Positions 32,301-64,000 of a stretch of 64,000 nt of DNA are shown here, piece by piece. The position numbers were made by a program, and so were the translations under genes. The stretch comes from a virus, in IMG/VR virus record IMGVR_UViG_3300012017_000779, positions 1 to 64,000 of that record. One strand, given 5' to 3'. The notes beneath the pieces were generated by a model that saw nothing but the letters and a program-made list of their open reading frames with translations, ran no database searches and had not been told where the DNA came from. The number at the start of each line of letters is the position of its first letter. Position 1 is the first letter of the stretch.

Positions 32301-35300
32301 CAATTTCTAATTTTTTAATATTATAATTAGGATCATCTTCTTTAAGTTTAGATAATTCTTCTCTTAATTTATTTAATTCTTTACTTTTTTCATTAACAAC
32401 AGCTATTATTTGATTAGTACTTAAATCATTAGTGTTAACAGTTTTATCATTATTTTGAAAAGTAAATTCTGATATTAATTCAATATCTTTATTAAATTCA
32501 TCAATGATAGTTTTTGCAGAAGCATCAGTATTAACCCAATCTTGAAATGCTTTTGAAGAAGCATCAGGAGCATTTATTTTATCTTCAGTTGTTTTACTTG
32601 GTAATGTAGTTTGAAAATCTTTGTAAAGTTTATCTTTTAATCCATCAGACATAGCTTTAAAATCTGATTCACCTATAATATAAGGATCTTCAAATTCTAA
32701 ATCAGTTAAACTTTTAGAAGTTTCAAAGTTTTTAATAATATCTAATTTCTCTTTAGCATATCTATTTTCTATTTCAGTTACTTTTATTGGATCTGGAATT
32801 AATTCTTCAGAGTAAACTTTATTTTCAGTAAATCTAGTTTTGTCATTTAAATCATATACATCTCCTGTTTCATCATTATATCTTAATACTCCTTGATCAT
32901 CTTTGTATAATATTATTGTTGTTTCAGAATTTTTTGGAGTAAGTTCAATATAAGAATTATTATTTAATATTTCATCAACATTTTTAATACTGATTGATTT
33001 AGCATTTCCTTTTAATTCAATAGATTCTTCAGGAATTTGTGTAACTGTTTTTTCTAAAAGATCAAGTTCATTTTGTTTTTTTTCTTCTAATTTAACAAGT
33101 TCTTCAGTATAATCAGCTATTACATTACTTACTTCTGAAAATTTAGATTTTGCTTTTAGATCTCTATCTTTTGATAAATACTTATCATATATTTCATTAT
33201 ATTTTACAGTATCTATTTTATAAACTTCTCCGTCTATTGAATTAAAAAACTCAGAGGGTCTAGTTCTTAGTGTTTGCCAGTCAGAATAGTCATTAGCACT
33301 CATATAAAGGCCTTCATCAGCCATTGCATTTAATAAGGCATTACTTTCAATATTAGCAATTTCTTGTTTAACTAAATCTCTAAAATATTTTTTTCTATTT
33401 TTATATAATCTTTTAGACCATTCTGTATTTTTTCTAACTAATCCATAAAAATTTTCAGGATCACTAAGTAATTCTATATGAGATGCTAAATTTCTAGAGT
33501 CTTTATTTAATTTATAAAAGTCTACAAGTTGTACAAAAGCATCATCTAATTCTGTACTAAAAATATTAGTATCCTGAGCTTTTGCTAATGTACGTAAATA
33601 AGAGTCATGAGATTTTTTAAGATTACTTAATAGTTCAATCATTTTTTCTTCATCATCTTCTTTACCATATAACTTAGACATTTTTTCTTCAATATCTTCA
33701 GCAGTAATATCTTGTTCTGTATCTTGTTGAAGTTCTTCTTGAACTTCTTTAGTGTATTCTGATCTATTAGTAAATCTATTAAATGCATCATATGAAGTTT
33801 TAAACTCTTTTAAAGTTGAAATTTCTTCTTCTAAATCATTTATTTTAATTTTATCTGACTCTATAGTTGTAGAAGTTTTAGACTTAACTCCTTTTTTTAA
33901 CATATCTAATTCTAACTCAAAAGAATTAATACTATCAGCTAATAACTTAACTTGAAATAATGGTGAAATTTTTGAACTACTAACATTTTTTAAAGTACTA
34001 TTTTTTAAATAAGTTTGCTTAATACTACTAATTCTATTTGCAACATCTTTAAATGCTTCATTTGCATAAACAATATTTTTAACTGCAACATCCCAACCAT
34101 TTCTAAGAGCAGCAGCTTCTACATAATTAGGATCACTCCTATCAGGCATGTTGTCATTATTTATTGGATTTGGAAAATTTTCAGAAACAGTTTCATAAGC
34201 TTCTTTTATAGAATCAATTTTATTTATAGTCTTGTCTATTTTTAATCTATATCTTTCAGCATCTTTTAAATCATCAAACTTTAATTCTTCTTGTAATGCT
34301 TCATCAGAAACATCTCTTAATGATTTTAATTTATCTTGAAAAATTTCAGAAGAACCAGTTTTTATCATAGTAGAAACTTGGTTGATTAATGAATCTAACT
34401 CAGCATCTTTAGATTCTTTTGTATTTGCTTGTTCCTTTATTAAAGATAATGTATCTTGAGAACCTGCATTTACATATCTATTAGATAATAAATCATTTAT
34501 ATCAATCTTATTTAATTCATTTACCAAAGTATTTGTTACTGCTTCTTTTTGTTCTGTCCAAGCTTTATATCCTGCTTTATCAAAAATTCTTCCATAAGCA
34601 TTTTGTAACAATGAAAAAGTTTTGTTCATGCCTCCACCTAATGTTCCCATAAAAAAACCTGAAGCAAAAGTTTCAAATCCTTGTGCTGAAAACTCTTTAT
34701 TAAGTTCTTCATTGTAAATACTTAATGGTGTTCCTGAATTATTTTTTAGGTTAATACTATTAACAGCATTATTAAAAAGACTTGCTTTTAAATATGGACT
34801 ATTATAAGAATCAGTATACCATTTTTCATTAGCTCTTGCAATAATTTCTTGTGCATTTTCTTGAAATCCTTCAGAAAAATTAGATTTAAAATATTTAATA
34901 GAACCAAGTACTGATTTAGAAAGAGGTTGTTTCATCCAACTTTTTGCTAAATTTTTAAAACCTTGATATCCAACAGATGATTGATATAAAAATTGTTTAG
35001 CTGTTTTATCATATAATACTTTACCTATGGTACCAAAAGATTTATGTGAAACATTCATTATATCTTGAGTAGCATTTTTAAAGTAATTTTTTATACCACC
35101 TTTATTTAAAATGTTTCCAAAAGTTATTTTATTTGTTCCATATATTAATCCAGCATTTTTATAAAAAGTTTCTAAACCAGATTTTACAGAAACTTTAGTC
35201 ATATCCTCCTGTTCTTCATTAGTAGGGGCTCTTTTATTTCTTAAATAAAATTGATCATATTTATTATTATAAACTTTATCCTGAACCATTCCTGCTTCTA

Positions 35301-36402
35301 ATCTAGATTCAGATATGGCTGCATTTATACTTCTTACATCTTGATAAAATCCACCTGCAGTTTTAAAAGCTGTAGCTAAATTAGTAAGATTAGATGTTTT
35401 AGCATTTTGAAATGATCTTCTAGCATTATTTACTGGATTAAGAAAAGAACCTACTGGAGTATCTAAAAGATAATTTGCATCTTTCCAAAATGAATTTGCA
35501 CTTTTTAAATTATTTAAAGACTGTACAGTTTGTACTGTATTTTCTGCATCTTTAGCAAACTTAAGTCCTTTTGCTGCTTTATATACATTACTTAAAGAAT
35601 TTTTTGTAGCTCCTAAAAAACTTAAACCTCCTGTTACCGGAGCCAAAAGACCAGCAGCAATTTCTTCAGTTACTATTTCAGAAATAATTCCTGCAGTATA
35701 ACCAAAGTTCATAAATGTATTACTAAAAAAAGGAACTAAACCTTTTTTAGTAGATGTACCAATAGCAGCTGCTTCTTCATATTCTCTAGCATCATCTAAA
35801 TCACCACTAGTAAAATCACCATGAACCATTTTTAATAAACTTTTTGGTCCAGCTACAAAACCTCTTGTAAATAATGGTACAAAAGAATGTGTTAATTGTC
35901 TACCAAAGTCTTGCCATGCAGAAGTGTTTTCATTAAAAGTAGATTCATTATCTTTCATAGGATTAAATCCTATTTTATCAAATGTTTCTGTTCCATATGC
36001 ATAGTATCTTTTAAAGTGTGCATTTCCACTACTTCCAGCATTATAAGAATATAATTTTGCAGTTGAACCTTTTTGTTCATGTGATTTTGATAAAGATGTT
36101 AAATAATTCTTAATTAAAGAAACTTTTTCTCTAGGATCTATACCTTTACTATTATATGCAATACCACCTTTTTTTGGAGGTGTGCCTACAATATATTTTC
36201 TTACATTTTTTGATTGATTAACTAAACCTTTTGGAACTAATGGATTTTCTAAAGCAGGAGGATTTGCTTTACCAAAATCAATTGGATCACCTTCAAATGG
36301 AGTATAATTTTTAGCATCTGGATTAAGAGAATTTATACTTCCAACAGCAGGTCCTAATGTATCAAGAGGATTAAAACCTTCTTCATTGTTATTTAATGCC
36401 AT
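29386..36402 (-). CDS. Large internal virion protein with PD-(D/E)XK nuclease and GNAT acetyltransferase domains
   Basis: 2338 aa; IAGEIDLIVVD...IIDIKT...QQAVY nuclease; GKGQGSKMF GNAT motif A; N-terminal Gly/Ala-rich amphipathic segments. Confidence 0.75.
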   Translation of the reverse strand: MALNNNEEGFNPLDTLGPAVGSINSLNPDAKNYTPFEGDPIDFGKANPPALENPLVPKGLVNQSKNVRKYIVGTPPKKGGIAYNSKGIDPREKVSLIKNYLTSLSKSHEQKGSTAKLYSYNAGSSGNAHFKRYYAYGTETFDKIGFNPMKDNESTFNENTSAWQDFGRQLTHSFVPLFTRGFVAGPKSLLKMVHGDFTSGDLDDAREYEEAAAIGTSTKKGLVPFFSNTFMNFGYTAGIISEIVTEEIAAGLLAPVTGGLSFLGATKNSLSNVYKAAKGLKFAKDAENTVQTVQSLNNLKSANSFWKDANYLLDTPVGSFLNPVNNARRSFQNAKTSNLTNLATAFKTAGGFYQDVRSINAAISESRLEAGMVQDKVYNNKYDQFYLRNKRAPTNEEQEDMTKVSVKSGLETFYKNAGLIYGTNKITFGNILNKGGIKNYFKNATQDIMNVSHKSFGTIGKVLYDKTAKQFLYQSSVGYQGFKNLAKSWMKQPLSKSVLGSIKYFKSNFSEGFQENAQEIIARANEKWYTDSYNSPYLKASLFNNAVNSINLKNNSGTPLSIYNEELNKEFSAQGFETFASGFFMGTLGGGMNKTFSLLQNAYGRIFDKAGYKAWTEQKEAVTNTLVNELNKIDINDLLSNRYVNAGSQDTLSLIKEQANTKESKDAELDSLINQVSTMIKTGSSEIFQDKLKSLRDVSDEALQEELKFDDLKDAERYRLKIDKTINKIDSIKEAYETVSENFPNPINNDNMPDRSDPNYVEAAALRNGWDVAVKNIVYANEAFKDVANRISSIKQTYLKNSTLKNVSSSKISPLFQVKLLADSINSFELELDMLKKGVKSKTSTTIESDKIKINDLEEEISTLKEFKTSYDAFNRFTNRSEYTKEVQEELQQDTEQDITAEDIEEKMSKLYGKEDDEEKMIELLSNLKKSHDSYLRTLAKAQDTNIFSTELDDAFVQLVDFYKLNKDSRNLASHIELLSDPENFYGLVRKNTEWSKRLYKNRKKYFRDLVKQEIANIESNALLNAMADEGLYMSANDYSDWQTLRTRPSEFFNSIDGEVYKIDTVKYNEIYDKYLSKDRDLKAKSKFSEVSNVIADYTEELVKLEEKKQNELDLLEKTVTQIPEESIELKGNAKSISIKNVDEILNNNSYIELTPKNSETTIILYKDDQGVLRYNDETGDVYDLNDKTRFTENKVYSEELIPDPIKVTEIENRYAKEKLDIIKNFETSKSLTDLEFEDPYIIGESDFKAMSDGLKDKLYKDFQTTLPSKTTEDKINAPDASSKAFQDWVNTDASAKTIIDEFNKDIELISEFTFQNNDKTVNTNDLSTNQIIAVVNEKSKELNKLREELSKLKEDDPNYNIKKLEIETLSEETKKLLKVNKSRSLQERTTPQKKVIKEIEKLIALNKSVQKDYVLTEDDPVTGLKKGDKAYLIDNLVHRRVTNAIQAYLEKYEYSSYKLVEKSYDDTIRKNGLNEASVDAFIKLLKDGGASGINDKLFTELSKDIKSFITSNVVNNKIESLNNQIKSLKEDIALSKKAKNKDRVKTLNADLKTLTAKLTALGTTDTKADIEYLGTPEISKIEIGTINNIVINGDLYQFKTKDGLISGVMISPTEFRIDGISANEVGKGQGSKMFETLIRYLKAKGVKTLKTESAGEGAIKMHNKAVDKGLLTKVKEDGRFAIFTINNTELAALDTTVETDINNEELFDKVLNLISEKSYEDGRVAGNYVDLIKDYFQYGKKPEFDEKIISKKAYEELFNDDTGYIVQLGKKFKDEGYYIVGNNLVVWDSNIVTEEGKKDRIAGEIDLIVVDKKGNAFIIDIKTGSKSKWTNFNSLTNSFDNKKYSKRNEYTLQQAVYRELLKRQTGVETEIGLLPIERESDKETDQIISAKKPLAAGLAKEVIYEFDDDGKVKKNKFKDPKGDKDFEEKIFKTGPNNAINDVFIPLSLESVAEEIDDLLAPKDDEGAQSFSFESPDIKQTSQEVQLLKNKNAVIINSYKKDLENSQISLDKLENILKSITIPDISNIAISNAFIADRLKVSEDGDNKFKNYYDKHKSFEDSTKPPHENQLMAAKILNATKIITDVEYQSIESQDLNMAEVSELIHNAVIRIEYLIANDTSNAQEFKVYQKTLFSYMGQSSFHMNLQDTVNVLGNLNKTNYNSLLTNEILKLTNKLQYAKIDFQKKNILGSIEKLTNLKDNLLSLYGEVKEEFVSPIEVNSRYFKNNKDYTQVTVMKVDGDKITIKGNRKNSKESIVNTKDLLNKDLYLTSEDIENLKSEESTYEANESEKTILKEVQNTTDTFINSTEDKNKATEIGLKDNITKIEDDLLTKIKNCQ
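31313..31733 (-). repeat. 25-bp imperfect direct repeats flanking the GNAT domain
   Basis: GTTGTATCTAAAGCAGCTAGTTCTG (31313-31337) vs GTAGTACCTAAAGCAGTTAGTTTTG (31709-31733), 396 bp apart and in frame. Confidence 0.65.
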
Positions 36403-39459: not shown

Positions 39460-42108
39460 TTAATAATTAGGATATACTGTATAAACATAACCTCCATACT
39501 CAAAGGATTCACCACCATATTTATGATTGTCCATATAAATTTTAATACAATTGTTTAAAGCATTACCTGATTGATCTTTACAATGTTCTTCTGCATCTTC
39601 ATAAGTATTTTTTCTTTTTGTACTATCAAGTGTTTTATCAGTTGGAGTATATGTTACTCTTCCACCTGGTCCAGCATCAGTTTGATAGTTAGGATACATT
39701 TGATTAAGAGCATCAGTTTTCCATTTATTAGTTACTGCAGTATTATAAGCATTTCTTAAGTTTTGTCTACCTTGTAACTTAGCATTATCAAACTGTTGAT
39801 TAGCAATAGTATTTTTATCAAAAACTCTATTTGCCATTTGTTGGTTTAACATAGATTCTTGATTTCTTATACCTACTTGTGTACCTTCAAACTGGTTTGC
39901 TATGTTTACATTCTGATTATTTATATTACTCAAAGTATTTGCAGCTTGTGCAGCAGCATTTCCTTGAGTTGCAGCATTTCTGGCACCTAATCCTTGAGCA
40001 CCTGCAAAAGATGCAGAAGCTTGAGAAGCAATATTTGCTTGTTCAGATTGTGCACCTAATTCTCTTGTAGGATCTAAAAATGTAGGTCTTGGTTCTTCAA
40101 GATCAACTCTTGCTTCCCATGGCATATACTTTTTAATACTTGCTAAATCAGATACAGCACCCATAGTATTTACATTATCTTGTAACCACCATTCAGCAGG
40201 TTTTCTTTCACCAGGTACAACTTTATCAGTAGTTGTAGTAGTTGAATCTTCTTTAGTTTTTTCTTCTGTAGTTTTTGTTGTTTCATAACATGATGCATCA
40301 TCAGCTATACAATTTCCATCTTTATCTACTGGAGCTTTTTTAGTATTACCTTGAGCATCTTTATATATACTACCATCAGTTTTTTTACAAAGACAAGGAT
40401 CTTTTGCTTCATCTGGTAACTTTTCAAAATCAAAATTTATAGGTGTTCTTGAAGATGTAAAAGCTCCAAAATCAGAATCAATTCCTTGTCCTGATGTGTT
40501 GTCAAAACCAAAATCACTTATAAGACTAGACTTTAAATTAGTTAATTCATTTTCAGTATAGGCTGGTCTTCCAGAAGCAACTTTTTTAGCATTAAGTTCT
40601 TTTACTTTATTAGGTATATAATCATTATTAATCCAAGTTTGAAATTCTTTAACTTTAGGATTATTTTTTCCTGGTCCACCTGGCTTATTTATTTCTTCTA
40701 ATAATTCAGCATATTCTGGATATACTCCATCCCATTTAGCAAAACTTGTTAAGTTTTTTTCAGCATTTCCAAAACCTATTTTAGAAGGTTTTTGAACATC
40801 CTCATATTCATCAACACCAACAGCTTCATCATTAAGTTTAATACCATATTCTTTAGTATAATCAGTTTTTGACTGTTGTTTTGTTTTATTTTTTTTATCA
40901 CCAGGACCACCTACAACATACTTAGGCATACCACCATAAGCCATTTCATATGGATCATCATAAAAAGGCATATCATAGCCACCCATAGACATACCATAAG
41001 CTGCCATAGGAGCTTGTTGCATCTGTCTTGGATCTTGTTCTTGTCCACCTTGCATTTGTTGCATAACACCCATTACAAGTTGTTGTACTTGATCTTCAGG
41101 CATTCCTAATTCTACAAAAATTTGTGCAATTGCTTCAGGAGGAACTTGACCTTGCAATAACTCAACAGTTAACTCTTCAGGTTCAGCACCTTGTTGTAAA
41201 GCCTCTGCAACTTGTTGCATAATCTGCATCATTTGTTGATCTTGACCACCTTGTTGTGGTTGCTGTTGAGCTTGTTGTTGTTGCATCATCATCATTTCTT
41301 CTTCAGATGGTTGTTGCATTCCTTCTTGAGCTCTTCTTAATCTTCTCATTCCACCATATCTCATCATTTCTTCTTGTGATTGTGCAGTTGGTTCACCATT
41401 AGGCATTTCCATAACTTCTTCTTCCTCTTCTTGAGGCATGTTATTATTATTAGATTGCTGTTGACCTTTTGGATTTTCTTTTTTAGGAATTAAATCTTCT
41501 TCAGTAATACCATTAGCTTCCATGTATGGTTCAGATAATTTAGGGATTCCTTGAGGAAATCCTTTTTTAGATTCCTGAGCAAGAGCAAGAGCACCTAATT
41601 TAATAACATAATTTTTAATCATCATTTCAGCAGTTTTTATATCTAACTTATCTGAATTACGATCTTGTAAAATTTCTCTATATCTATTTATATCAAATTT
41701 TTTAGACATTTCTGCAGGAGTATAACCACCTTTTTTTGTAGGCATGTTAAACATTTTTAATAATACCGGATCATTAATCATCATAGCTTTGGTATCACTA
41801 AAAATAAAACTATCATCTGGAAGATTTAATGGTACACCACCTTTAGTATGTCTTGGACCTTCTATATTAAAAAATGAAGGAATTTTACTGCCATCTATAT
41901 TACCTATTACAGTTTCTCCACCTTCAGCTTCTAAGTTAGCATCTTTTCTAGGTACCGCAGTTATACTTTTAGTAACCTTGATATTAGAATGATCTTTAAA
42001 ATTAGTGTTGCTATCACCAAATGATGACACATCATTTTTTAAAGAACCATCTACTTGATAGCCAACTTTTGCTTTTGGTAAAGATTTTATTCTTACTTTA
42101 TAGTACAT
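39460..42108 (-). CDS. Cargo/internal virion protein with Q/M-rich region and xxxGG motifs
   Basis: 882 aa; EAEGGE...GPRHTKGGVP...FIFSD N-terminal domain typical of crAss-like cargo proteins; repeated YGG motifs. Confidence 0.65.
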   Translation of the reverse strand: MYYKVRIKSLPKAKVGYQVDGSLKNDVSSFGDSNTNFKDHSNIKVTKSITAVPRKDANLEAEGGETVIGNIDGSKIPSFFNIEGPRHTKGGVPLNLPDDSFIFSDTKAMMINDPVLLKMFNMPTKKGGYTPAEMSKKFDINRYREILQDRNSDKLDIKTAEMMIKNYVIKLGALALAQESKKGFPQGIPKLSEPYMEANGITEEDLIPKKENPKGQQQSNNNNMPQEEEEEVMEMPNGEPTAQSQEEMMRYGGMRRLRRAQEGMQQPSEEEMMMMQQQQAQQQPQQGGQDQQMMQIMQQVAEALQQGAEPEELTVELLQGQVPPEAIAQIFVELGMPEDQVQQLVMGVMQQMQGGQEQDPRQMQQAPMAAYGMSMGGYDMPFYDDPYEMAYGGMPKYVVGGPGDKKNKTKQQSKTDYTKEYGIKLNDEAVGVDEYEDVQKPSKIGFGNAEKNLTSFAKWDGVYPEYAELLEEINKPGGPGKNNPKVKEFQTWINNDYIPNKVKELNAKKVASGRPAYTENELTNLKSSLISDFGFDNTSGQGIDSDFGAFTSSRTPINFDFEKLPDEAKDPCLCKKTDGSIYKDAQGNTKKAPVDKDGNCIADDASCYETTKTTEEKTKEDSTTTTTDKVVPGERKPAEWWLQDNVNTMGAVSDLASIKKYMPWEARVDLEEPRPTFLDPTRELGAQSEQANIASQASASFAGAQGLGARNAATQGNAAAQAANTLSNINNQNVNIANQFEGTQVGIRNQESMLNQQMANRVFDKNTIANQQFDNAKLQGRQNLRNAYNTAVTNKWKTDALNQMYPNYQTDAGPGGRVTYTPTDKTLDSTKRKNTYEDAEEHCKDQSGNALNNCIKIYMDNHKYGGESFEYGGYVYTVYPNY

Positions 42109-42118
42109 AATTAATTAT

Positions 42119-45100
42119 TTATAAAAATTCAACTTGTCCACCTTCTGCCATAAAAGCTCTAATTTGATCTTCAGACATGTATGTTATTTTTTCACCACCC
42201 TCAGCATAAGTTAATTCATCTTCTTCATCTTCTTCTGTATAAGGATCATAATATTCTTCTTCATCTATGTATCCACCATATTGTGCAGATCTACTGTTCC
42301 ACATTTGACCTTGTTCATCAGGTCTATATAATCCTGAATTAGTATCATAATCTCCTTTATCTCTACTAGGATCAGAAGCATAAAGATTATTAGAACTTAA
42401 GTTTTCATACATTTCATTTTCTTTTTTTCTACTTTCTATATTTTTTCTTATACCATCTATAACATCTACACCTGCATTAAATGTTTGTAGTCTTGCTTCA
42501 TTTTTTGATGTATCAGCATTAGCACCAAAAGCAAGGTCTTTTTTATTTTCTACATCAACAGCATACATATCATTAAAGGATGGTTTATCTTCATTTATTT
42601 GAAGATTTCCACTTTTATCTTTTATAACTCCAGGTTTTTCACCAGTCAATGGATTTCTATAATCTTTATCTATTACTCCTGGTTGTTTTATATCTTGAAT
42701 ATTATTTCCAAAGTCAGATCCTGTAGATCTTTTTTTAACAACTTTACCCATAAAATCTACACAATCTCCAGCTGCATTTTTAGTAGAACCCATTGGACAT
42801 TCTCCTGGACTCATAGAAGTTTGAAAACCATCTTCTGCTCTAGGAAGAAACATATCTAAATTACCACCATATTGCATTTCAGTATTTCTTGGTCCTGATG
42901 TATTAATTAATTGATCAGATGAAAAAGGAATTCCTTGTAATTCTTTTGATTGAGTATTTCTTAATTGATTCATTGTATCCTGATTAGATTTAATATCTAA
43001 TCTTCCTGTATTACGATAAGGATGATCTAAAGGAAAATCTGCATAAGGATCATATTTTTTAATTGGCTTACCACCTATTGGATTACCATATTCATCTAAA
43101 CCTTGCATTCTAAGTTTTAAATTATTTATAAAACCATAACCTTGTCTTCCAGATCTTTGATTTTTATTATTTTCTCTAGTATCTTCAGGATAATTATCTC
43201 TAACTGGTTTTTTTGCACCTTGACAATTTGGTGAATTAGGAAAATCTAAACAATATCTATCACGACCTCTTTGAGAAGCATCAGTACCTTTTGATGTAGT
43301 AATAGGTTGACCAGATTGACCATTAAAATACATAGTATATTTTTTTGGTCTACCTGACCAGAATCTAGTTTTATCTACATTTATACTAGATAAGTTACCC
43401 ATATTAATAGGCATAACAATTGTCTTTCCTGTTCTTGGATCATAAACTCTTTGAATTTCATTTCTATAAGTTCTTTGTGGACTTAATATATTTCCGGGAA
43501 AATAATTTTCAATAAATTTTCTAACTCCACCACCTCTTTGAAAATAAGGATCAGTTGTATCTATAGAATTTGAATAATCCATATCTTGTTGAGTAGGATC
43601 ATAACCACCTTGATTAAATTCATATAAATCAGGATTCTCACTATCTACAAAACCTCCATTTTCAAGATTAGGATCAAAAAATCTTCCAAGTCTTTCCATA
43701 AATGATGGATCTCTATAATAATAATCAGATTTCTTTTTTGTTTTTTTAGTAGTAGTTTTCTTTTTATTAGTAGTTGTAAATTTAGGAATTTGATTTTCAG
43801 GAATTATAACTTTATTTTTTTTAATTTCTATTAAAGTAGGAGAAGAATTTCTTTTTACTTCTGGTTTATAAACACTACTTATTATTGGTGTATTTGCTAC
43901 AGTTGCATTTGGATTAACTGTTGCTTGTGTAATTACTTCTTTAGAAGTACCCGTTGGTAAAGTTGAAAATTTTCCTGGTTGTAAATAATCAGGTATTTTA
44001 TCACTATTAGCATCTGTTGTAAAAAAACCATGAGGTAAAAGTGTACCTTGTTTTGGTAAGTCTGTACTTTGAGATTTATTTATTATAGTTGCAACAGTAC
44101 TTGACACTGTACTTTGTGAAGATTTAACAACAGGTTTTTGTGATACTACATCTGGATTATTTCCATTAGCAATATCTACAAGTGGAGAATATCCATAAAA
44201 ATCTATTCTATATTTACTTGGTTTTCCTGTTAACCAATTTGATTTTCTAACATCTACACTATAAGAAGGATGATCATAAGAATGCATTTCATTATTGCTA
44301 TTTTCATTTCTTCTTGGAAAACAATTTGTTTGTCCATTTTCATCTTCAAAACATGTATTGTTTCTTTCATTAAATTGTCCTTTAACAGCATAATCAGTTG
44401 CATCTACATAACCATCTTTATTATAATCTCCTTCTTCAAATGTTGTTGTAGGATAATCATTAACATTAAAATAATCTATATTATCTTCTCTATCTCTTCT
44501 ATTTTGACCTGTTATAAAATCTTTTAATTGGTTTGCTCTATATTTCAACTCATTACCACGAACAACTTTAGGATCTCTTGAACCTGCAGAACCACCTCTT
44601 CTCATCATATCATTTTGAGGTTGCATTTGTTGTTGCATCATTTGATCATATTCTTGTTCAGCTTGTTGTTTTAAGTTAAACATTTCTGTTTCTTTCTTTA
44701 AACTACTTATAAAATTATTTAGTTTTTGTTTTCTAATTTTTTTACCAGTAGGATCTCCTGCTTCAGGATCTTCATCAGATTTTTTTTCTTCACCACCTTC
44801 TGCTTTTTTTGCTAATTTTAAAATAGAATTAACATAAACTCTTTTATTTCTTTTATAATTTCCTCCCATTTTCATTTCAGGAGGTGCATCTAAAGCATAT
44901 TCACTAGATACATCAGATTCTTCTTCTTCTTCTTCAGAATTATCTTCATTTTCATATTCACTATTTTGATTTATATCTTTACTAGCATAATGATTATAAT
45001 ACATTCCTGTTGCAGGATCTACAGTTCCATTTAACATATCTGCCATATTATATGGTAAATAAGTTTCTATTTCTGGAAATACTATACCAGGAGCAGTAGG

Positions 45101-46087
45101 ATTAAAAGGATATGTAACTTGACCATTTTGTTGTATTTCTGTATCAACATCTTCTACTTCTTCTCCATCTTGAGCTTTATAAAGTCCACCATAAGCCATT
45201 TGTCCACCATACTTTTCTTCATCATCATCTTCCTCTTCTTCTTCATCTTCATCTTCATTTAATAACATATCAGATACAAAACTATTATTTTGAGTATCTT
45301 CAGCAGCATCTACTTCTTCTTGTGATTCATAAGGCTCTTCTTCAACAACTTCTTCTTCAACAACTTCTTTTTCATCTTCATCTTCATCAAAATCATATTC
45401 ATAATCAGAACCATTTTGTTCAGTTAAATAATTTTTTACTTGACTTACTAAATTTATAGCTTCCATTGGATCTACATCATAAAAGTTTGCTAATTTAAAA
45501 GCAATCTGTTGTTCATCAATATCATTATTTAAGTCATTAGAAATTATATTAACTAATTCATCTTGTGATAAATCTTTTTTTTCTTCTGAATTAGAACCAG
45601 GATAACCCATTTCACTAACATCAGGTACTCCACCTAATTGATATTTAGGAAAAGTACCATTTTTAATACGTTGTAAAGCATTATACTGACTTTGTGTTGC
45701 TAAATTATTATTTTTTATTACAGCTTCTATTATTTTTTCATGATACTTTCTAGTTGATGGACTTATATTAGATATATTTAATACATCTTGAAAAAATGCT
45801 GGATTTTTTATTTGAATTTTTGATGATGCTGTAGTTGCTTTTTTAATTCCTTCACCATATTTAATAGCTCCTGCAGCTCTAGCTGCATTATTAGATTTGT
45901 CTATAGCTTTTGCTAGTTCAGTTGCCTTTTGTATTTTATCAGATTCATCAAAATTCATAATAAGTTGTTTTCCATATTTTAAAACATCTTTTACAATTCT
46001 TCCTTTTTGAGCTTTTTCTAAAAACTGACCTGTCTTATTAAGATACTTACCATTTCCATCAGGTGATTTATAAATTCTAACTTTCAT
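42119..46087 (-). CDS. Low-complexity modular virion protein with about 13 xxxGG motifs
   Basis: 1322 aa; acidic tracts separated by YQLGG, MAYGG, MKMGG, FQRGG, AQYGG and similar motifs. Confidence 0.6.
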   Translation of the reverse strand: MKVRIYKSPDGNGKYLNKTGQFLEKAQKGRIVKDVLKYGKQLIMNFDESDKIQKATELAKAIDKSNNAARAAGAIKYGEGIKKATTASSKIQIKNPAFFQDVLNISNISPSTRKYHEKIIEAVIKNNNLATQSQYNALQRIKNGTFPKYQLGGVPDVSEMGYPGSNSEEKKDLSQDELVNIISNDLNNDIDEQQIAFKLANFYDVDPMEAINLVSQVKNYLTEQNGSDYEYDFDEDEDEKEVVEEEVVEEEPYESQEEVDAAEDTQNNSFVSDMLLNEDEDEEEEEDDDEEKYGGQMAYGGLYKAQDGEEVEDVDTEIQQNGQVTYPFNPTAPGIVFPEIETYLPYNMADMLNGTVDPATGMYYNHYASKDINQNSEYENEDNSEEEEEESDVSSEYALDAPPEMKMGGNYKRNKRVYVNSILKLAKKAEGGEEKKSDEDPEAGDPTGKKIRKQKLNNFISSLKKETEMFNLKQQAEQEYDQMMQQQMQPQNDMMRRGGSAGSRDPKVVRGNELKYRANQLKDFITGQNRRDREDNIDYFNVNDYPTTTFEEGDYNKDGYVDATDYAVKGQFNERNNTCFEDENGQTNCFPRRNENSNNEMHSYDHPSYSVDVRKSNWLTGKPSKYRIDFYGYSPLVDIANGNNPDVVSQKPVVKSSQSTVSSTVATIINKSQSTDLPKQGTLLPHGFFTTDANSDKIPDYLQPGKFSTLPTGTSKEVITQATVNPNATVANTPIISSVYKPEVKRNSSPTLIEIKKNKVIIPENQIPKFTTTNKKKTTTKKTKKKSDYYYRDPSFMERLGRFFDPNLENGGFVDSENPDLYEFNQGGYDPTQQDMDYSNSIDTTDPYFQRGGGVRKFIENYFPGNILSPQRTYRNEIQRVYDPRTGKTIVMPINMGNLSSINVDKTRFWSGRPKKYTMYFNGQSGQPITTSKGTDASQRGRDRYCLDFPNSPNCQGAKKPVRDNYPEDTRENNKNQRSGRQGYGFINNLKLRMQGLDEYGNPIGGKPIKKYDPYADFPLDHPYRNTGRLDIKSNQDTMNQLRNTQSKELQGIPFSSDQLINTSGPRNTEMQYGGNLDMFLPRAEDGFQTSMSPGECPMGSTKNAAGDCVDFMGKVVKKRSTGSDFGNNIQDIKQPGVIDKDYRNPLTGEKPGVIKDKSGNLQINEDKPSFNDMYAVDVENKKDLAFGANADTSKNEARLQTFNAGVDVIDGIRKNIESRKKENEMYENLSSNNLYASDPSRDKGDYDTNSGLYRPDEQGQMWNSRSAQYGGYIDEEEYYDPYTEEDEEDELTYAEGGEKITYMSEDQIRAFMAEGGQVEFL

Positions 46088-46097
46088 AACTACATAT

Positions 46098-46148
46098 TAT
46101 ATATTTAATATACTAAATTTTAATTTATTCAATAAACTTAATAAGTTT
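46098..46148 (-). promoter_or_regulatory. Putative phage promoter with upstream palindrome
   Basis: 20-nt string (46098-46117) identical to 59168-59187; AAACTT-AAT-AAGTTT palindrome at 46134-46148. Confidence 0.6.
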
Positions 46149-49100
46149 AATTAATACCTTTTGCTTTCATATAATTTAAAATACGTTTGTATTGATTATA
46201 AGTAATATCAGGTTTTGTTTCAAGACCTTTTTCATTAGCATGTTTTTTTATATAGGCATTTCTAATTTGCTCATGTGTAATAATACTTTTTAAATTTAAA
46301 TTATATTTTTTTGCAATTGGAGCATAATACTCTACAAATGAAATAACTTGTTGATCAGTTAATGGTTTTTTTTGTGTATCTCCTTGAAATTCTACACCAA
46401 TACTAAAATCATTAACATCTTCTCTTCCATTCCATTTTGATTTTCCTGCATGAAAAGAAACTTGTTCAGGAGATGCATATATAGTTCTAGAACCATCTTC
46501 TTCAATAACTACGTGAGAAGAATTTTGTCCAGGTGTCATAAATTGTTTTTTTACTTCAGCATTATTAGTAATAGGATCATTATAAGCAGTATGATGTAAT
46601 ACAAAGTTTTTAATTTCATTTTTTAATTTATGACCAGCTTTATAACTGTCATCTTTTTTTGTTCTTACATTAGGCATATCATATACATACGTTTCTTTAA
46701 ATTTGTTAACAGGAACATTATATTTTTTTATATATAAACCATTACCTCCAGAAGTATTTTCAGCATCATAATTAACCAACCTTTGTTTAGTTAACTTACC
46801 ATCTTTATAAGAAAGACCTCTTGCATATGTTCCATTATCAAGACTCCATGCTTCAAGATATTTACTGTTTCCTTTTAATCTTTTAAATTCTTTTTTAATA
46901 TGAGAAACACTTCCTGATACCAATGTTTGTTCTTTTGTTGTAGGATTAACAAAAACAACTCTACCTCCTAAAATAGAACCATAATAATCTTCTTCTGCTT
47001 TACCTTTTTTTGTTAAAATATTTAAAGCACCTTTTTTAAGTTTATTATTTTCTAATATTGTTATTTGAGGTTGCCAAAATTTTGGATTTCCAGATCTTGC
47101 TCCATCTAAAGATATGTCATCAATAGAAACAATTTTATTCATAAATGTTTTAGAAAATTTCCAATCTTTATTATTTTTTAAATTTTTATAAATACCAGTA
47201 TGTAATACTCCTTTGTTATCTAAAGCAAATACACTATTATCATCATTTATACCATTTACATTTGTTTTTTTATTATAAGGTTTTATATTAGCTGCCTTAC
47301 TAAATGGATGAAATGTTGTAAATTCTAATCCATCAGATTCTATATCTTGATATTGACCTCTATTTCTACTACCTAAAACTAAGTTAGATGTTGGAACAGT
47401 TTGTTGTTTAAACTGTCTATTTGGTTGATCATTTACATTTAATATAGTTTGTGATAAAGTTGGATTTTTATAATAATCTTTTACATTTATAGGTTCAGGT
47501 GATTCTATAACTTTTTTATCTTTAGTTTCTACTATACCCCAAGTTTGAAGTTTACGGTCTAAACCATTATTAAAAAGTTTTTTTTGATTATCCAACCAGT
47601 TATCAAAACTTTTTATTTCTTTATAAGTTGATTCAAAAAATGAATCTTCTGGTTTAACAATTTTATTTTTTATATTAGAATTATTATTTTTAGTTATTTG
47701 TAAACTATTTTTAATAGGTTCAACTTTACTTATATTTTTTTCTTTTAAAATATTTTCTTTTGCAATGTTTTGCAATTTATTTTTTAAATCTAATTCAAAA
47801 TTAGATTTAGTTTCAATAGTAGGTATTTTTCTAATAGTTTTTTTTATAGGTTCAGTTGTTTGTTTATATTTTTTTATATTTTTATCATCAACTTTTTCAT
47901 AAGCTATATCATCAATATCTTCCATACCAAAAAATCTTTTAAATCTTTCTGTATATGTAGGATCTCTTGTATAATCATAAGATTTACCTTTTTTATTAAA
48001 ACCACCATTTTGATAATTATCTATTTCCTCTACTATATAACCACCTTCTTTATATCTTTGTACTTCTTCTGGTGTTAGATCTAATTCTACATAATCATTA
48101 TTTTCTCCACCTTGTTTATATTGCCCTCTAAAACCTGTATTATAATCTTTTTTTAATTTTTCTAAATAGTTTTTATATTCTATTTGTTTGTTTCTATCTA
48201 AATTTTTATAATCCATAAATGGATAAGTTTCATCAACATCAAACATTTTTTGACCTTTTTTTCCTACTACAGTATTTCTATCTAATAATATTGGTAAATC
48301 ATAAGAATTATTAGGCATAAATTGAGAATTCCAATAACCATTATTAACTGCTAATTTATTCAATTTTCTACTTTTTAAATTATGATATTTATTAAACCAA
48401 TCTTGATAATTACCTGTACTATAATCTCTTGGTGAATGCAATTTAAACATATACTTTCCATAACCAGATGGTACGTCTGAAGTATATAAAGCATCTGCAT
48501 AACTCATATCTGGCATACCTGATCTATAACCATATTGTTGCATAGGTACATGAGTAGCTTGATATTTAGCAATTGAAATAGGATCATCAAAATTTACTCC
48601 TGCATTTTTCATATTTTCAAATTCAGATATTTTATTATTCCATGAAGGTTTTGACATATCATAAGGTCTATTAGTATAGTCCATAACTCCTTTACCATCT
48701 CTAGGTACTGAACCATCAACACCTCTAAATTTAGTTGCTTCTCTATTTAAAGCTAGTTTAGTTAACTTATTTGTTCTATCTGTACTTCTAGCTGCATAAT
48801 TTAAATCTTGAAAATCTTTACCTATAAGCTCTTCTTTTTGTAAGTTTTTAATAAATTGTCTTCTTGGTAAAAAACCAGAAATTTCTTTTAAATTTTTAGA
48901 AGAAAAATCATATTTAGAAAGGTCTATTTTAGGAGAACCTGATAATTGTTTAGGAACTCCTTTAAATCCTTTTATTAAATTTTTAGATGCATTATAAGCA
49001 GGTTTAAAAACTTGTTTACCTAAACCTAATCCTAAAAAACCTAGTGCATTAACTCCTGTTTCAAAAGAAGCATCTCCTAAAGTATTCCATGAAGGATTAT

Positions 49101-51330
49101 TAATAAAATTACTTTGAGATTTTACAACATCACTTTTTGAATCTCCTTGATTATAAAGAGCATCAGCTCCAAAATATGCTGCTACAGAATTACCAAGATT
49201 TAATTTACCTCCTGTTGCATCTGTAATTTTTTTACCTAATGGTAAAGGTGCTTTTACAGATGTTTTTGTTGCAGTCCATAAAGGTTTTAACCATTTTCCT
49301 GCTTGTAAAACCATTTTTGGTGCACCTCCTATTCCTGTCATTGGAGAATCTTCAAAAGGAGATCTACCTTTAGGTTGTGGTTTATAATTACTTTCTGGAG
49401 CATCTGTAAATAGTCTATTTAAAATATTAGAATGTTCCCAGTCATCTTGTCTTTTATTAAATTGACCTACTGTTTCTTTAATACCTTCATTATTAGCAAG
49501 ACCTTTCTTTATTTTACTATCTTCTTTTTCTTTTTGAATTGCTTTTTCTTTTTCTTCTGAACTTTTTTTAACAAAAGCTTGTATATTATTTTTATATTTA
49601 GGATCAAAAGACCAGTCTAAAGGTTTTTGATAAATATTATTTACTCTTGTATTATCAGAAGAATTAGATGAAACTTTAGACATACTATCATCAACAGGTT
49701 TAGCCATCTTATCTAAAACTGCTGTCCTAGCTTTAACATCTCCTTTATTTAAAGGTTGATATTTACCAGACCTATTCCAATCTACTTGCCACTTACCATT
49801 AACTTTTTTGTAATTACCCTTACTTCCTTTTACAGTGTATATACCACCATCTTGGTAATTATCTATTTCTTCTACTACATAACCACCTCTTCTATATTCT
49901 TCTATCTCATCTTCATCAAGATCAGCTTCTATAAATCCTGGAGAAACATCTTTATAATTTTCTGCAAAATAATTAGCATCTTCATTTGAATCAAATCTTA
50001 TAGCTTCATTAGATTCCGGACCATAGTCTCCAAGTTGTAGTACACCATTCTCATCTTGTATTTGTGGTACTGCATAATTATCCATGCTTGCCATGTAATG
50101 AGAACCAGTATCTCCATTATCAAATTGATAAGGATTGTCTGGTAGGTTAATCATTCTTTCAGCAGCAGGGTTACCAAACTCATTAGCATATGCTAGTCTA
50201 GCTTTCATCATACCAGTCATTGCATCTTTGTTACCACCATCTTGTTTTTTAGGAAACATAGATTTACCATCTTTTTCAAATTGTTCTTCACGGACTCTTG
50301 CTTCTCCTTCTTCTGTAGTTGGATCTTGATACATTAAAGCATTTGCACCTGGAAAACCTTCTGTAAATTCTTGTAATTTATTTCTTGGTATAAATTGTAA
50401 ATTAGGATCAGCTTTGATCATTGCATCTGTTTGTGCTTCTAATTCAGTATTTCTTCTGTCATAGTAATTACTTATTGCTTGATCTGATGCTACAGTATTA
50501 TTAGGTCTTTGACCTAAAAAACCAGCAGTACTTGCACCACCTCCTAAGTTTTGCAAATGGTGATACTTTTCATGTTCTGTCCACCAACCATTATTTTCTA
50601 TTGATCCAGGTCTTGTATCTTGACTTATTTCACCTGTTGCTGCATTATATCCTGTATTCTCATCAGTTTCAATTACTTCTGGTTCTTGCCATTCTACACA
50701 TTGACCATTATAAATAATATATCCTTCTGGACATTTTGATTCTCCACCATCTTGTGCATGTACTAATCCTTGACCACCACACTCATGACATGTAGTAATA
50801 TCTTTACCACCATCTTCAGCATCCCATTTCCAGCCACATTTTTTACATGTTACTTTTTTAGTAAGTAAAGCACCACCTTCTGCATAATACTTTGAGTTAG
50901 GATCAAATACTTTATTCTTTCTAGACTTAGGTTTTGCAAATAAAAAATTTTGTGTAAATAATTTATTAGTTGCACTAAGACTTCTTGAGTAACCTTTAGA
51001 ATTTTTTTTATTAGGCATTTTTAAAACAGAACCACCTTTACGCATAAAATCTTCAGGTTGTTCTAACTCAGGTTGCATTCTATAGTTAGTAGTAATTTCT
51101 TCTCCGGGTTTTAAATTTTTAGAAGCATAGATAAATCTTTTATTATCTATTTTTTTACTATAAGCTGTAGGATTTTTTTCATTATGATTATGATTTCTTC
51201 CAATTTCAGATGCGGGTTGATCATCAACATGAGCTAATCCAATTACCTCACCTTTTTTAAAAGGTGCTTTAGTAAATAAACCTTTACCAGCTCCTTTTAT
51301 ACTAGATTGTTTTGTTATATATTTTTTCAT
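46147..51330 (-). CDS. Polyvalent virion protein: SET domain, Zn ribbon, HExxH module, ART-like module, C-terminal Amidase_2
   Basis: SSIKGAGKGLF...NHN...GEEITTNY (SET); CKKC..CHEC; HEKYH; VLHHTA...SSHVVI...FHAG...NDFSIGVE...THEQI (amidase). Confidence 0.8.
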   Translation of the reverse strand: MKKYITKQSSIKGAGKGLFTKAPFKKGEVIGLAHVDDQPASEIGRNHNHNEKNPTAYSKKIDNKRFIYASKNLKPGEEITTNYRMQPELEQPEDFMRKGGSVLKMPNKKNSKGYSRSLSATNKLFTQNFLFAKPKSRKNKVFDPNSKYYAEGGALLTKKVTCKKCGWKWDAEDGGKDITTCHECGGQGLVHAQDGGESKCPEGYIIYNGQCVEWQEPEVIETDENTGYNAATGEISQDTRPGSIENNGWWTEHEKYHHLQNLGGGASTAGFLGQRPNNTVASDQAISNYYDRRNTELEAQTDAMIKADPNLQFIPRNKLQEFTEGFPGANALMYQDPTTEEGEARVREEQFEKDGKSMFPKKQDGGNKDAMTGMMKARLAYANEFGNPAAERMINLPDNPYQFDNGDTGSHYMASMDNYAVPQIQDENGVLQLGDYGPESNEAIRFDSNEDANYFAENYKDVSPGFIEADLDEDEIEEYRRGGYVVEEIDNYQDGGIYTVKGSKGNYKKVNGKWQVDWNRSGKYQPLNKGDVKARTAVLDKMAKPVDDSMSKVSSNSSDNTRVNNIYQKPLDWSFDPKYKNNIQAFVKKSSEEKEKAIQKEKEDSKIKKGLANNEGIKETVGQFNKRQDDWEHSNILNRLFTDAPESNYKPQPKGRSPFEDSPMTGIGGAPKMVLQAGKWLKPLWTATKTSVKAPLPLGKKITDATGGKLNLGNSVAAYFGADALYNQGDSKSDVVKSQSNFINNPSWNTLGDASFETGVNALGFLGLGLGKQVFKPAYNASKNLIKGFKGVPKQLSGSPKIDLSKYDFSSKNLKEISGFLPRRQFIKNLQKEELIGKDFQDLNYAARSTDRTNKLTKLALNREATKFRGVDGSVPRDGKGVMDYTNRPYDMSKPSWNNKISEFENMKNAGVNFDDPISIAKYQATHVPMQQYGYRSGMPDMSYADALYTSDVPSGYGKYMFKLHSPRDYSTGNYQDWFNKYHNLKSRKLNKLAVNNGYWNSQFMPNNSYDLPILLDRNTVVGKKGQKMFDVDETYPFMDYKNLDRNKQIEYKNYLEKLKKDYNTGFRGQYKQGGENNDYVELDLTPEEVQRYKEGGYIVEEIDNYQNGGFNKKGKSYDYTRDPTYTERFKRFFGMEDIDDIAYEKVDDKNIKKYKQTTEPIKKTIRKIPTIETKSNFELDLKNKLQNIAKENILKEKNISKVEPIKNSLQITKNNNSNIKNKIVKPEDSFFESTYKEIKSFDNWLDNQKKLFNNGLDRKLQTWGIVETKDKKVIESPEPINVKDYYKNPTLSQTILNVNDQPNRQFKQQTVPTSNLVLGSRNRGQYQDIESDGLEFTTFHPFSKAANIKPYNKKTNVNGINDDNSVFALDNKGVLHTGIYKNLKNNKDWKFSKTFMNKIVSIDDISLDGARSGNPKFWQPQITILENNKLKKGALNILTKKGKAEEDYYGSILGGRVVFVNPTTKEQTLVSGSVSHIKKEFKRLKGNSKYLEAWSLDNGTYARGLSYKDGKLTKQRLVNYDAENTSGGNGLYIKKYNVPVNKFKETYVYDMPNVRTKKDDSYKAGHKLKNEIKNFVLHHTAYNDPITNNAEVKKQFMTPGQNSSHVVIEEDGSRTIYASPEQVSFHAGKSKWNGREDVNDFSIGVEFQGDTQKKPLTDQQVISFVEYYAPIAKKYNLNLKSIITHEQIRNAYIKKHANEKGLETKPDITYNQYKRILNYMKAKGIN
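48001..49935 (-). repeat. About 90-bp imperfect direct repeats encoding E.DL..EE...Y..GGY.VEEIDNYQ.GG
   Basis: Copies at about 48001-48093 and 49843-49935 bracket a segment of about 1.75 kb. Confidence 0.75.
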
Positions 51331-56869: not shown

Positions 56870-57925
56870 TTATATAACTCTAGTGTTTCTAAAACTTCTT
56901 GGATGTTCATTATTTGGTCTATGACTTGTAAACATATCATAATATTTACTATGCATAGCTCTTCTATTTGTCCACCAAATTTCTTCAAGTTCACTAAAGT
57001 TTGGAGTATTAACTAAACTAAGTGCTTGATTTCTAGCAGCTTTTAATCTACCTTCTATTATCTGCATTCTTTGTGCAACATCTTCACCATTCATTAATAA
57101 GTTTTCAAGAATTCTTGCTTTAAATGCATATTCATAATATTCATTTATAAGATCATGATCAGGAACTAATAAGTTTCCATTATCATCTTCCATAGCTCCT
57201 TGATAATTTAAATAAACTTTACATGTGTCTAGTGTAGTAAATAAAAAACCACCTTTTATCCAACCTTCATCTAAAGTATTTACATATAAATTTGGACAGT
57301 CACAAGAAATTTCTTGACTAGTTTTCATTCTTAATGGAAGAAGTGTACTATAGGTTCTTGTTTGTCCAGTATTTACTATTTGAATAAGTTCAGATTTTTC
57401 TCCTTTACAGTTCATAAAAACTCTTGGCCTTATACAAGTATCTCCATAAGGATTAAGTGGATCATATGAGCTAGGAATAGTTGGTGTGGGACATTCTGCA
57501 GCACAAGAATTAGTAGGACATGCTGCAGTATGATTACATGGATTAGAATTACATGTAGAACAGTTAATTGTAATAGGTGCACATACATTTACATTAGCTG
57601 GAGTTTCAACATAAGGTACTTCTTGTATATTAGTTCCACCAACCATTCCATTGTATCCTATACTTTCAGTAAATTCACCACATAGTAATGCATAATTAAA
57701 TACATAAAAGTCATCTGGTAATTTTACTCTACCATGACATACTTCTAATACAACTTCTTTAGTTTGATTAATTCTTAAACCTAAATCATAGTTTAATTTT
57801 TTAGCTAACTTGATAAGCTGTTGAGGCTCTATCATGTTTTCTAATGCTAAAGTATTAAAGTCTATTGATACATCTTCTAAAACTGAGTCAAAAGTTCTGT
57901 ACCGTAGTGTATAATTAAAGTCCAT
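56870..57925 (-). CDS. Tail ring / tubular protein with Cys-rich insertion
   Basis: 351 aa; KLPDDF...LNYQG...DDNGNLLVPD motif; crAss synteny IHF-ring-ring-muzzle. Confidence 0.65.
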   Translation of the reverse strand: MDFNYTLRYRTFDSVLEDVSIDFNTLALENMIEPQQLIKLAKKLNYDLGLRINQTKEVVLEVCHGRVKLPDDFYVFNYALLCGEFTESIGYNGMVGGTNIQEVPYVETPANVNVCAPITINCSTCNSNPCNHTAACPTNSCAAECPTPTIPSSYDPLNPYGDTCIRPRVFMNCKGEKSELIQIVNTGQTRTYSTLLPLRMKTSQEISCDCPNLYVNTLDEGWIKGGFLFTTLDTCKVYLNYQGAMEDDNGNLLVPDHDLINEYYEYAFKARILENLLMNGEDVAQRMQIIEGRLKAARNQALSLVNTPNFSELEEIWWTNRRAMHSKYYDMFTSHRPNNEHPRSFRNTRVI

Positions 57926-63998: not shown

Positions 63999-64000
63999 TG

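Follow-up and report, generated by a model that had tools for sequence, protein, structure and literature searches.

A conserved Gly-Gly motif at the junctions and ends of presumed virion cargo proteins of an uncultured crAss-like phage

The DNA analysed here (the window) makes up the first 64 kb of G000, a linear viral contig of 82,178 bp (IMG/VR record IMGVR_UViG_3300012017_000779) with a CheckV completeness of 69%. G000 is very AT-rich, and between 14.4 and 63.5 kb the minus strand carries every large open reading frame (ORF). Three adjacent genes on this strand encode proteins of 1727 amino acids (aa; 46147–51330), 1322 aa (42119–46087) and 882 aa (39460–42108). By analogy with phage crAss001, all three are probably virion cargo, packaged with the DNA and injected. 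They are punctuated by a short motif ending in Gly-Gly (GG), which an earlier note on this DNA had read either as the cutting site of polyproteins or as a repeated capsid-loading tag. All 28 of the xxxGG pentapeptides listed in that note are present, as are its variants AQDG, AQEG and AEDG, and the observation is confirmed. The pattern is a real, conserved tag system for the junctions and ends of the cargo proteins.

The three proteins together have 45 GG dipeptides, against 23.1±4.2 in 500 composition-preserving shuffles of each protein (z=5.2). The excess is sharper for [MYFA]xxGG, with 25 sites observed and 3.8±1.8 in the shuffles (z=12), and for [MY]xxGG, with 18 observed and 1.8±1.3 in the shuffles (z=12.4). 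The observed motif counts were reached in 0 of the 500 shuffles. A comparison with the rest of the proteome, which the earlier note had proposed, sets the three proteins apart: the remaining 43 ORFs of the 82-kb genome hold 13 motifs where 12.6 are expected. There is no excess in the capsid, portal, ring or fibre proteins of G000, or in those of the virion RNA polymerase (vRNAP) block – the giant genes after the 882-aa gene, a label that comes from the earlier note. Met or Tyr stands three residues ahead of GG in 23 of 53 sites in the three proteins (binomial p=1e-12), compared to 6 of 74 elsewhere (p=0.38). Four sites of the 882-aa protein (EAEGG, HTKGG, TKKGG and AGPGG) are within confidently folded domains and so are not linker-type GG.

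The consensus is [M/Y/F/A]-[Q/K/A/R]-x-G-G-x-hydrophobic. With the two glycines numbered P2 and P1, most of the information in 842 non-redundant GG sites from relatives is upstream: 0.35 bits at P5 (Met/Tyr/Phe), 0.30 at P4 (Gln/Lys/Ala) and 0.31 at P3 (Tyr/Lys). On the downstream side, P1’ has 0.22 and P2’ 0.16 bits, and all other positions have at most 0.09. Two close relatives served for comparison: G002, whose capsid protein is 96% identical, and G003 (IMGVR_UViG_3300008262_000018), whose 121-kb genome is complete, has terminal repeats and encodes a capsid protein of 82% identity. In both, the motif recurs in the cargo proteins at the syntenic position and in small basic proteins encoded after the capsid gene. 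A check across the Crassvirales, also proposed earlier, gave a divided answer: the motif is strong in this lineage, but phi14:2 and crAss001 have only a weak excess, with a few related sites in crAss001 gp45 and phi14:2 g070. The strong form is therefore specific to the lineage and not general to the Crassvirales.

Sequence of this kind could produce GG motifs by chance. Parts of the linkers are of low complexity, Met/Gln-rich in the 882-aa protein and with acidic runs in the 1322-aa protein, and the whole pattern might be a compositional accident of Gly-, Met- and Tyr-rich sequence. Shuffles that keep the composition never match the observed counts, and the positions are conserved throughout the 882-aa family, with its roughly 1,900 cluster representatives. 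Together, these two results refute such an accident, which is left with a negligible probability.

The sites are not scattered at random along the proteins. The 1727-aa protein, the first gene past a muzzle-like gene, is divided in its N-terminal part into a SET-like cassette (residues 1–100), a block at 101–153, a Zn-ribbon (154–196), an HExxH cassette (197–365), a block at 366–470 and a junction module. The rest consists of 497–1075, a second junction module, 1111–1560 and an Amidase_2 domain (1571–1689). In Pfam, the amidase has an E-value of 1.6e-16, while SET is a weak match below the cut-off (E=0.0066). As the earlier note had claimed, GG motifs fall between these modules. On the minus strand, MRKGG (51031–51045) is the seam after the SET cassette at residue 100, YAEGG (50872–50886) the seam at residue 153, AQDGG (50743–50757) the seam after the Zn-ribbon at residue 196, and KQDGG (50233–50247) the seam after the HExxH cassette at residue 366.

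A search with the region found 32 large relatives of the 1727-aa protein, among which cassettes 80–99% identical have been gained, lost or relocated as discrete blocks. The Zn-ribbon is at residues 101–143, 145–187, 154–196 or 176–218, depending on the protein. The HExxH cassette is found in only 6 of 37 relatives, and without it the block 366–470 adjoins the Zn-ribbon directly. The SET module, N-terminal in the 1727-aa protein, is internal in G002 (residues 578–742), where FKYGGG..FTEGG stands ahead of it and YEDGG at its end. This YEDGG, at residue 740 of a 1535-aa protein, is homologous to the YAEGG at residue 153, and the sequences diverge beyond it. Alignment ends on the 1727-aa protein cluster at residues 97–100, 153, 196–205, 363–366, 1070–1075 and 1104–1110, all of them GG sites. 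Of 687 break points over all pairs, 31% have a GG no more than 5 residues away, compared to 10% of random positions; the median distances are 15 and 46 residues. The cargo proteins are shown to be chains of exchangeable cassettes joined by one short linear motif, in linkers predicted to be disordered. Motif positions track module boundaries and protein ends in the relatives; the failure to do so that had been named beforehand as grounds for giving up the idea did not occur.

Exchange of this kind could also leave such a pattern if nothing reads the motif. The junctions would then be passive hinges, giving flexibility only and copied along with the cassettes, and recombinants broken in a linker would be the ones that survive. 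Cassettes more than 90% identical that are present, absent or moved, with the excess of break points at GG sites just described, are as expected from such recombination, and so are the two junction modules of the 1727-aa protein, which are 75% identical over 89 nucleotides (nt). A hinge does not require Met/Tyr/Phe at P5, Gln/Lys at P4 or Tyr/Lys at P3, yet these are retained in the 842 sites and in phages as far removed as crAss001 and the cultured Leptolyngbya cyanophage Lbo-JY46. Recent copying fails to explain the similarity of the seams because their DNA identity is modest, and tags are also found at the extreme N-termini of single-module proteins. A passive seam is an unlikely explanation for the pattern.

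The motif belongs to a larger set of tags, one of which is a 33-residue end module with the consensus (Y/K)KQGG-TTNDY(I/V)ELDLTPEEIQxYKxGG-YIVEEID. It occurs in two internal copies, the junction modules of the 1727-aa protein, and at the C-terminus of the 1322-aa protein and of many relatives, some of which end in ..YVIEELN-stop or ..YIVEEIN-stop. All three copies in the window are on the minus strand: the first junction module (49843–49944, repeat D4) reads ..FIEADLDEDEIEEYRRGG-YVVEEID-NYQDGG, the second (48001–48120) YKQGG-..DLTPEEVQRYKEGG-YIVEEID-NYQNGG, and the end of the 1322-aa protein (42122–42208) YAEGG..SEDQIRAFMAEGG-QVEFL-stop. After an internal copy there is nearly always x(Y/F)QxGG, or in a few cases a variant such as PEMQSGG, ahead of a new cassette. 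In at least 15 terminal copies, the stop comes at most 2 residues past the last strand and the xYQxGG element is absent. The middle GG of the module becomes Q-G in terminal copies.

The other ends of the proteins have tags as well. The start tag is KVRIK..LPKAQxG. The 1322-aa protein, which has 10 [MYFA]xxGG sites, acidic low-complexity linkers and the C-terminal end module, begins with MKVRIYK..FLEKAQKG (45995–46087, minus strand), and proteins of its type with MK(R)VRIYK..F(L)xKAQxG. The 882-aa protein begins with MYYKVRIKSLPKAKVG (42046–42108, minus strand), of which I7 and P11 are retained in at least 90% of 76 homologues, and its type with MxKVRIKKLPKA(R/K)TG. The C-termini are ..GGxxxxGGFVYxxxxFPFIL or the 33-residue module; in the 882-aa protein, the tail (39463–39525, minus strand) is HKYGG..FEYGG-YVYTVYPNY, the family form being ..GGxxxxGG(F/Y)VYxxxx(F/Y)PF(I/L). 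In relatives, cargo proteins encoded by separate genes naturally begin and end with the motif, the start tag and the end module. Where 1322-type and 882-type proteins are fused, the stop, spacer and start are replaced by ..xxGG placed right before (K/A)(R/K)TGxQ.

About 7 pairs were found in which a protein with an end module is followed by a gene with a start tag, in G000, in G002, at the loci L036 and L039, and in Lbo-JY46. In Lbo-JY46 (PP438436, record 77867–81357), a 674-aa protein ends in ..FQQGG-..EEIDLSPEEVAKLIELGYDFEVV-stop and the following gene begins with MKIRIIGLPKAQIG. The tag-bearing consecutive genes are annotated there merely as hypothetical proteins; the second is taken as the counterpart of the crAss001 cargo protein C1 by its position and a ..HEEGGE.. 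motif.

Separately, a 70-nt repeat, 74% identical, is present at 43675–43744 and 47928–47997 of the window. In the 1322-aa as in the 1727-aa protein, it encodes K..S.DY.RDP...ER..RFF just past a seam, and may be a further start-of-module element.

The 882-aa family is large: a cut-off of E<=0.001 gives 1,904 metagenomic cluster representatives and one of E<=1e-30 still 1,131; no member was found in the collection of cultured phages. The best 150 family members have 533 [MYFA]xxGG sites, compared to 194 expected from composition. An AlphaFold2 model of the 882-aa protein, made with a 76-sequence alignment, has folded parts at residues 41–210, 290–350 and 640–820. The [MY]xxGG sites at residues 252, 376, 392, 400, 865 and 872 are all in segments with a predicted local distance difference test score (pLDDT) below about 60, while the GG at 63, 90, 127 and 815 lie inside the folded parts. 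The central linear peptide (40906–41013, minus strand) reads ..MSMGGYDMPF..MAYGG-MPKYVVGG, and the first Gly of its MAYGG is retained in 70 of 72 aligned homologues despite a pLDDT below 50. Across the family, this peptide extends over about 35 residues: PMAxYGMxMGGYDMPF..(Y/M)(Q/A)YGG-LPK(Y/A)QxGG. Conserved sequence combined with predicted disorder is the signature of a short linear motif.

The same protein has a Met/Gln-rich stretch (EEEMMMMQQQQ..., residues ~264–353, window 41050–41320), of which 290–350 is predicted to be helical with pLDDT above 90. A unit of this stretch, MRxGGM(R/K)RL(R/K)RA(E/Q)xG with QQPSEEEMMMMQQQQ, is duplicated in G002.

Beyond the window and next to the capsid gene, the motif is found in small basic, Lys-rich proteins. 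Two ORFs on the minus strand (genome 71622–72290 and 73314–73718) both begin with MKTKCMSCGG..KKMQxGGIIK. The first 19 residues form a leader, MKTKCMSCGGxxKKMxxGG, which contains a CxxC and is also found at 17 viral loci with differing bodies, so that otherwise unrelated internal proteins have a shared N-terminal leader, as is looked for with prohead proteases. In the bodies, KKMxxGG and LPKAQxGG recur every 10–30 residues. A further ORF (72326–72685) begins with MKALPKAQKG, after which comes a body that in a paralogue stands behind MQKGG. In the same neighbourhood, two adjacent minus-strand ORFs at 72701–73314 (112 aa, DUF5872; 90 aa, DUF6321) align one after the other to a single PHROG profile, phrog_727 (positions 268–329 and 349–430), and look like the split form of a protein that is single elsewhere.

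The reading of the three proteins as cargo depends on the place of their genes. Pfam identified a Crass_capsid major capsid protein (genome 74849–76465), a portal (77833–80583), CrAss_Ring_1 (56870–57925) and CrAss_Ring_2 (57925–58587). The nearest cultured phage by capsid protein is Lbo-JY46, and since it is just 28.5% identical, sequence comparison places G000 in an uncultured and distant lineage of crAss-like podophages. A megablast of the region had no matches, and tblastn of the 882-aa and 1322-aa proteins and a 222-aa protein against 50,697 cultured-phage records had none either. The gene order is Ring2, Ring1, 1845, 1727, 1322, 882, 999, 2338 and 3821 aa, with a 1159-aa giant also in the downstream block. 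The 1845-aa protein matches PHROG virion structural proteins and occupies the muzzle slot of crAss001. The three genes, past the muzzle-like gene and ahead of the giants, are in the slot of the crAss001 cargo genes gp45 and gp46.

In the crAss001 virion, the cargo proteins C1 (gp45) and C2 (gp46) are mostly unresolved chains, with short ordered segments on the portal, ring and muzzle proteins; residues 214–245 of gp45 are bound to ring proteins and 425–552 to the portal (Bayfield et al. 2023, PMC10172136). Sites related to the motif flank these bound segments: SAYGG at 209, AFGG at 427 and MFAYGG at 562. The portal-bound domain, modelled from residue 425, traverses A425-F426-G427-G428-W429. 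The 882-aa protein is the probable counterpart of C1. No homology between the two was detected by BLAST (nothing significant), Pfam (no hit) or PDB sequence match, and hhalign of the 76-sequence profile against gp45 gave a probability of 2% (E=0.025) over 31 columns, residues 100–137 against 480–510. With the whole 882-aa model as query, Foldseek and VIA gave generic long-helix matches and nothing else. PDB sequence searches with the cargo proteins matched the amidase alone, and a Pfam scan of nine sub-modules had no matches. The two phages share the genome position, past ring and muzzle and ahead of the giants associated with RNA polymerase. They differ in that crAss001 has one 842-residue C1 with a weak motif excess, and has no multi-enzyme cassettes, no end module and no motif-rich small basic proteins.

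The 1727-aa protein also fits the description of a polyvalent protein, with at least two unrelated effector domains and its gene among virion genes (CrAss_Ring_1/2 are nearby). Polyvalent proteins (Iyer, Burroughs, Anand, de Souza and Aravind 2017, PMC5512222) likewise combine unrelated effector domains in mosaic late virion gene products with predicted delivery alongside the DNA. Their processing into units has been proposed, by an embedded zincin-like metallopeptidase (PMC5512222); in the cargo proteins here, no such peptidase was detected by Pfam, and the HExxH cassettes are sporadic. Neither a junction peptide nor the word ‘linker’ was found in the text of that paper. The MARTX toxins are arrays of effectors freed by an internal cysteine protease domain, which cuts after Leu. 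Their arrays are mosaic and differ among close strains, as do those described here, where no protease domain of their own was seen. The earlier note knew of no prior description of the GG junction pattern, and none was found in the literature.

A protease of head maturation, or one that acts after ejection, could cut after the GG. The cargo would be diced into single effectors, the N-terminal leaders removed, and the small basic proteins reduced to short Lys-rich peptides, in the mode of T4 gp21 (LxE) or SPN3US gp245 (AxE) and with a site chemistry like that of adenain or the pS273R of African swine fever virus (ASFV). One short motif, biased to the P side, is common to the ends of unrelated modules; the junction-only xYQxGG is gone where the module terminates a protein; and the seams are protein termini in relatives. 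The 19-residue leader at 17 viral loci is much like the T4 capsid-targeting sequence, and the ORF at 72326–72685 joins a tag-like start directly to a body that elsewhere follows MQKGG. In SPN3US, ejection proteins are known to be processed at a motif of three residues (PMC10052503), and for polyvalent proteins processing has been predicted.

The site itself is a partial fit to the known GG proteases. Adenain cuts (M/I/L)XGG-X and ASFV pS273R cuts GG-X, in substrates that are large polyproteins and small basic core proteins. The GG at P2–P1 and an upstream hydrophobic residue are shared with these. The hydrophobic residue (Met/Tyr/Phe) is at P5 here and P4 is Gln, Lys or Ala, so that the adenain consensus does not apply, and the virus lineages are unrelated. 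Some sites are only 6–8 residues apart or within the 33-residue end module, Pro directly follows GG in 11 of 280 sites, and the conserved context around some sites far exceeds what a cutting site needs. The chain of crAss001 gp45 is ordered across AFGG-W.

An Ulp1/adenain-like protease, for which a genome search had been suggested, was not found: six-frame searches of the 69% complete G000, of G002 and of the complete G003 with PF02902 (Ulp1) and PF00770 (adenain) gave nothing at E<=1. These clan-CE hidden Markov models (HMMs) may have missed distant homologues, and a gene could lie in the part of G000 that the contig lacks. PF03412 (C39) had no match in G000, the one genome searched, and among the cargo and vRNAP-block proteins there was no Pfam peptidase match. 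Beyond the gene set of crAss001, the head module has no conserved genes except those for the small basic proteins, a Dps-like protein, DUF5872 and DUF6321, and the crAssvirus literature, including the crAss001 papers (PMC10172136) and a 2023 review, reports no protease and no processing.

Several individual genes were considered as the protease and rejected. A trypsin-like serine protease of 416 aa (window 63591–64000, continuing to genome 64841, minus strand; NHV..., GDSGS; phrog_20754 ‘protease’) has no homologue in any of the genomes G001–G004, of which G003 is complete, and the syntenic slot of G002 lacks it. It is among fibre-like genes and may belong to the tail and act on the surface of the host. 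The HExxH cassette of the 1727-aa protein is too sporadic, being confined to the few relatives noted above, and there is no HExxH among the G002 cargo proteins checked. The HExxH at residue 818 of the 3821-aa protein has no match in G003 and no Pfam peptidase match. The conserved ‘ECW’ of a 232-aa head protein was rejected as a papain-like centre, as the aligned crAss001 gp34 and gp35 and phi14:2 g089 are without the Cys. The 415-aa gene, the sole gene between portal and capsid and so in the place of a prohead protease, looks like a scaffold: the protein is acidic and rich in Glu, Lys and Gln, its position and N-terminal motif match crAss001 gp31 and phi14:2 g092, and among named Atlas clusters it comes closest, with a low score, to scaffolding proteins.

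Prohead proteases are known for T4 (gp21, LxE, with a capsid-targeting sequence), SPN3US (gp245, AxE) and phiKZ (gp175, AxE) (PMC10052503, PMC9026906). What is shared with T4 and SPN3US is a short motif confined to internal head proteins, a shared leader and several sites per protein; those phages have an identified, essential head-module protease, and mass spectrometry has proven the termini of their products. Here no protease was identified, and the motif ends in Gly-Gly instead of Glu. In short, the boundary part of the earlier claim of a di-glycine-cleaved polyprotein holds, with seams that track the modules, while the cutting part is not borne out, as no conserved protease was found. Cutting after GG is accordingly a doubtful, though serious, possibility. 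It is also rather improbable that a GG-specific protease, encoded by the phage but unrecognised or borrowed from the host, matures the head contents in a lineage of tailed crAss-like phages, cutting the giant cargo proteins into single injected effectors and the small basic precursors into Lys-rich DNA-associated peptides.

The reading preferred here, with a probability of roughly 0.4, is that the motif is an uncut docking or seam tag. It would be recognised by one common partner during head assembly. As an uncut seam, it would allow whole modules to be swapped without damage to their folds; as a docking handle, it would anchor the cargo chain to the portal, the tail lumen or the scaffold. The end of one cargo protein perhaps docks to the start of the next, and the cargo would then enter and leave the particle as a string, in order and mostly unfolded. 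An uncut tag is favoured because the motif is confined to presumed internal proteins (z=12), and because its disordered sites are conserved with about 35 residues of context, longer than a cutting site requires. The tags stand at natural termini, genes with end modules and start tags pair, and fused relatives swap stop and start for xxGG. The sites in crAss001 gp45 flank bound segments, with the chain ordered across AFGG-W, and the search for a conserved protease was negative; these too favour a tag that is left uncut.

Several results weigh against this preference. The P-side bias of the information in the 842 sites looks like that of a protease site. A handle belonging to the upstream module should persist where that module ends the protein, and xYQxGG is absent from those terminal copies. 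The vRNAP-block proteins, presumably packaged as in crAss001, are without the motif, and the small basic KKMxxGG proteins resemble the adenoviral core precursors, which are cut. The link between a C-terminal tag and a downstream start tag is weak, with 4 pairs at 56 loci (Fisher p=0.046). AlphaFold2 of the junction at residues 440–560 of the 1727-aa protein, made with a shallow alignment, gave a mean pLDDT of 44 and no confident fold or docking. The capsid-loading tag offered as an alternative in the earlier note is still alive.

The crAss-like phages package several megadaltons of protein with their DNA. A short, conserved and easily mutated tag on cargo proteins, at module joints and on small basic head proteins is a direct handle on how this cargo is selected, ordered and expelled, and would matter whether its role is in loading, in coupling or in cutting. 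The seams show the points of exchange, which would explain the mosaic effector repertoires of close relatives, and suggest insertion points for foreign payloads in such phages when grown in laboratory hosts. GG-specific maturation, if true, would be a convergent counterpart in the HK97 lineage to that of adenovirus and ASFV. The cultured Lbo-JY46, which has both tags on consecutive genes, might serve for experiments on this question.

Three further genes are of minor interest. In the tail-fibre region of G003, a 311-aa protein (L008:18508–19443) has the metzincin motif HESGHTLGLYH and, by eye, a lipoprotein-like signal; it is unrelated to the trypsin-like gene of G000 but is in the same genomic neighbourhood. 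A 395-aa protein of the early region (window 5527–6714, plus strand) has a metallopeptidase-like HELLHIAFGH motif. The 2338-aa giant (window 29386–36402, minus strand) has a PD-(D/E)XK nuclease-like domain, DUF3799, at residues 1791–1899 (E=4e-7).

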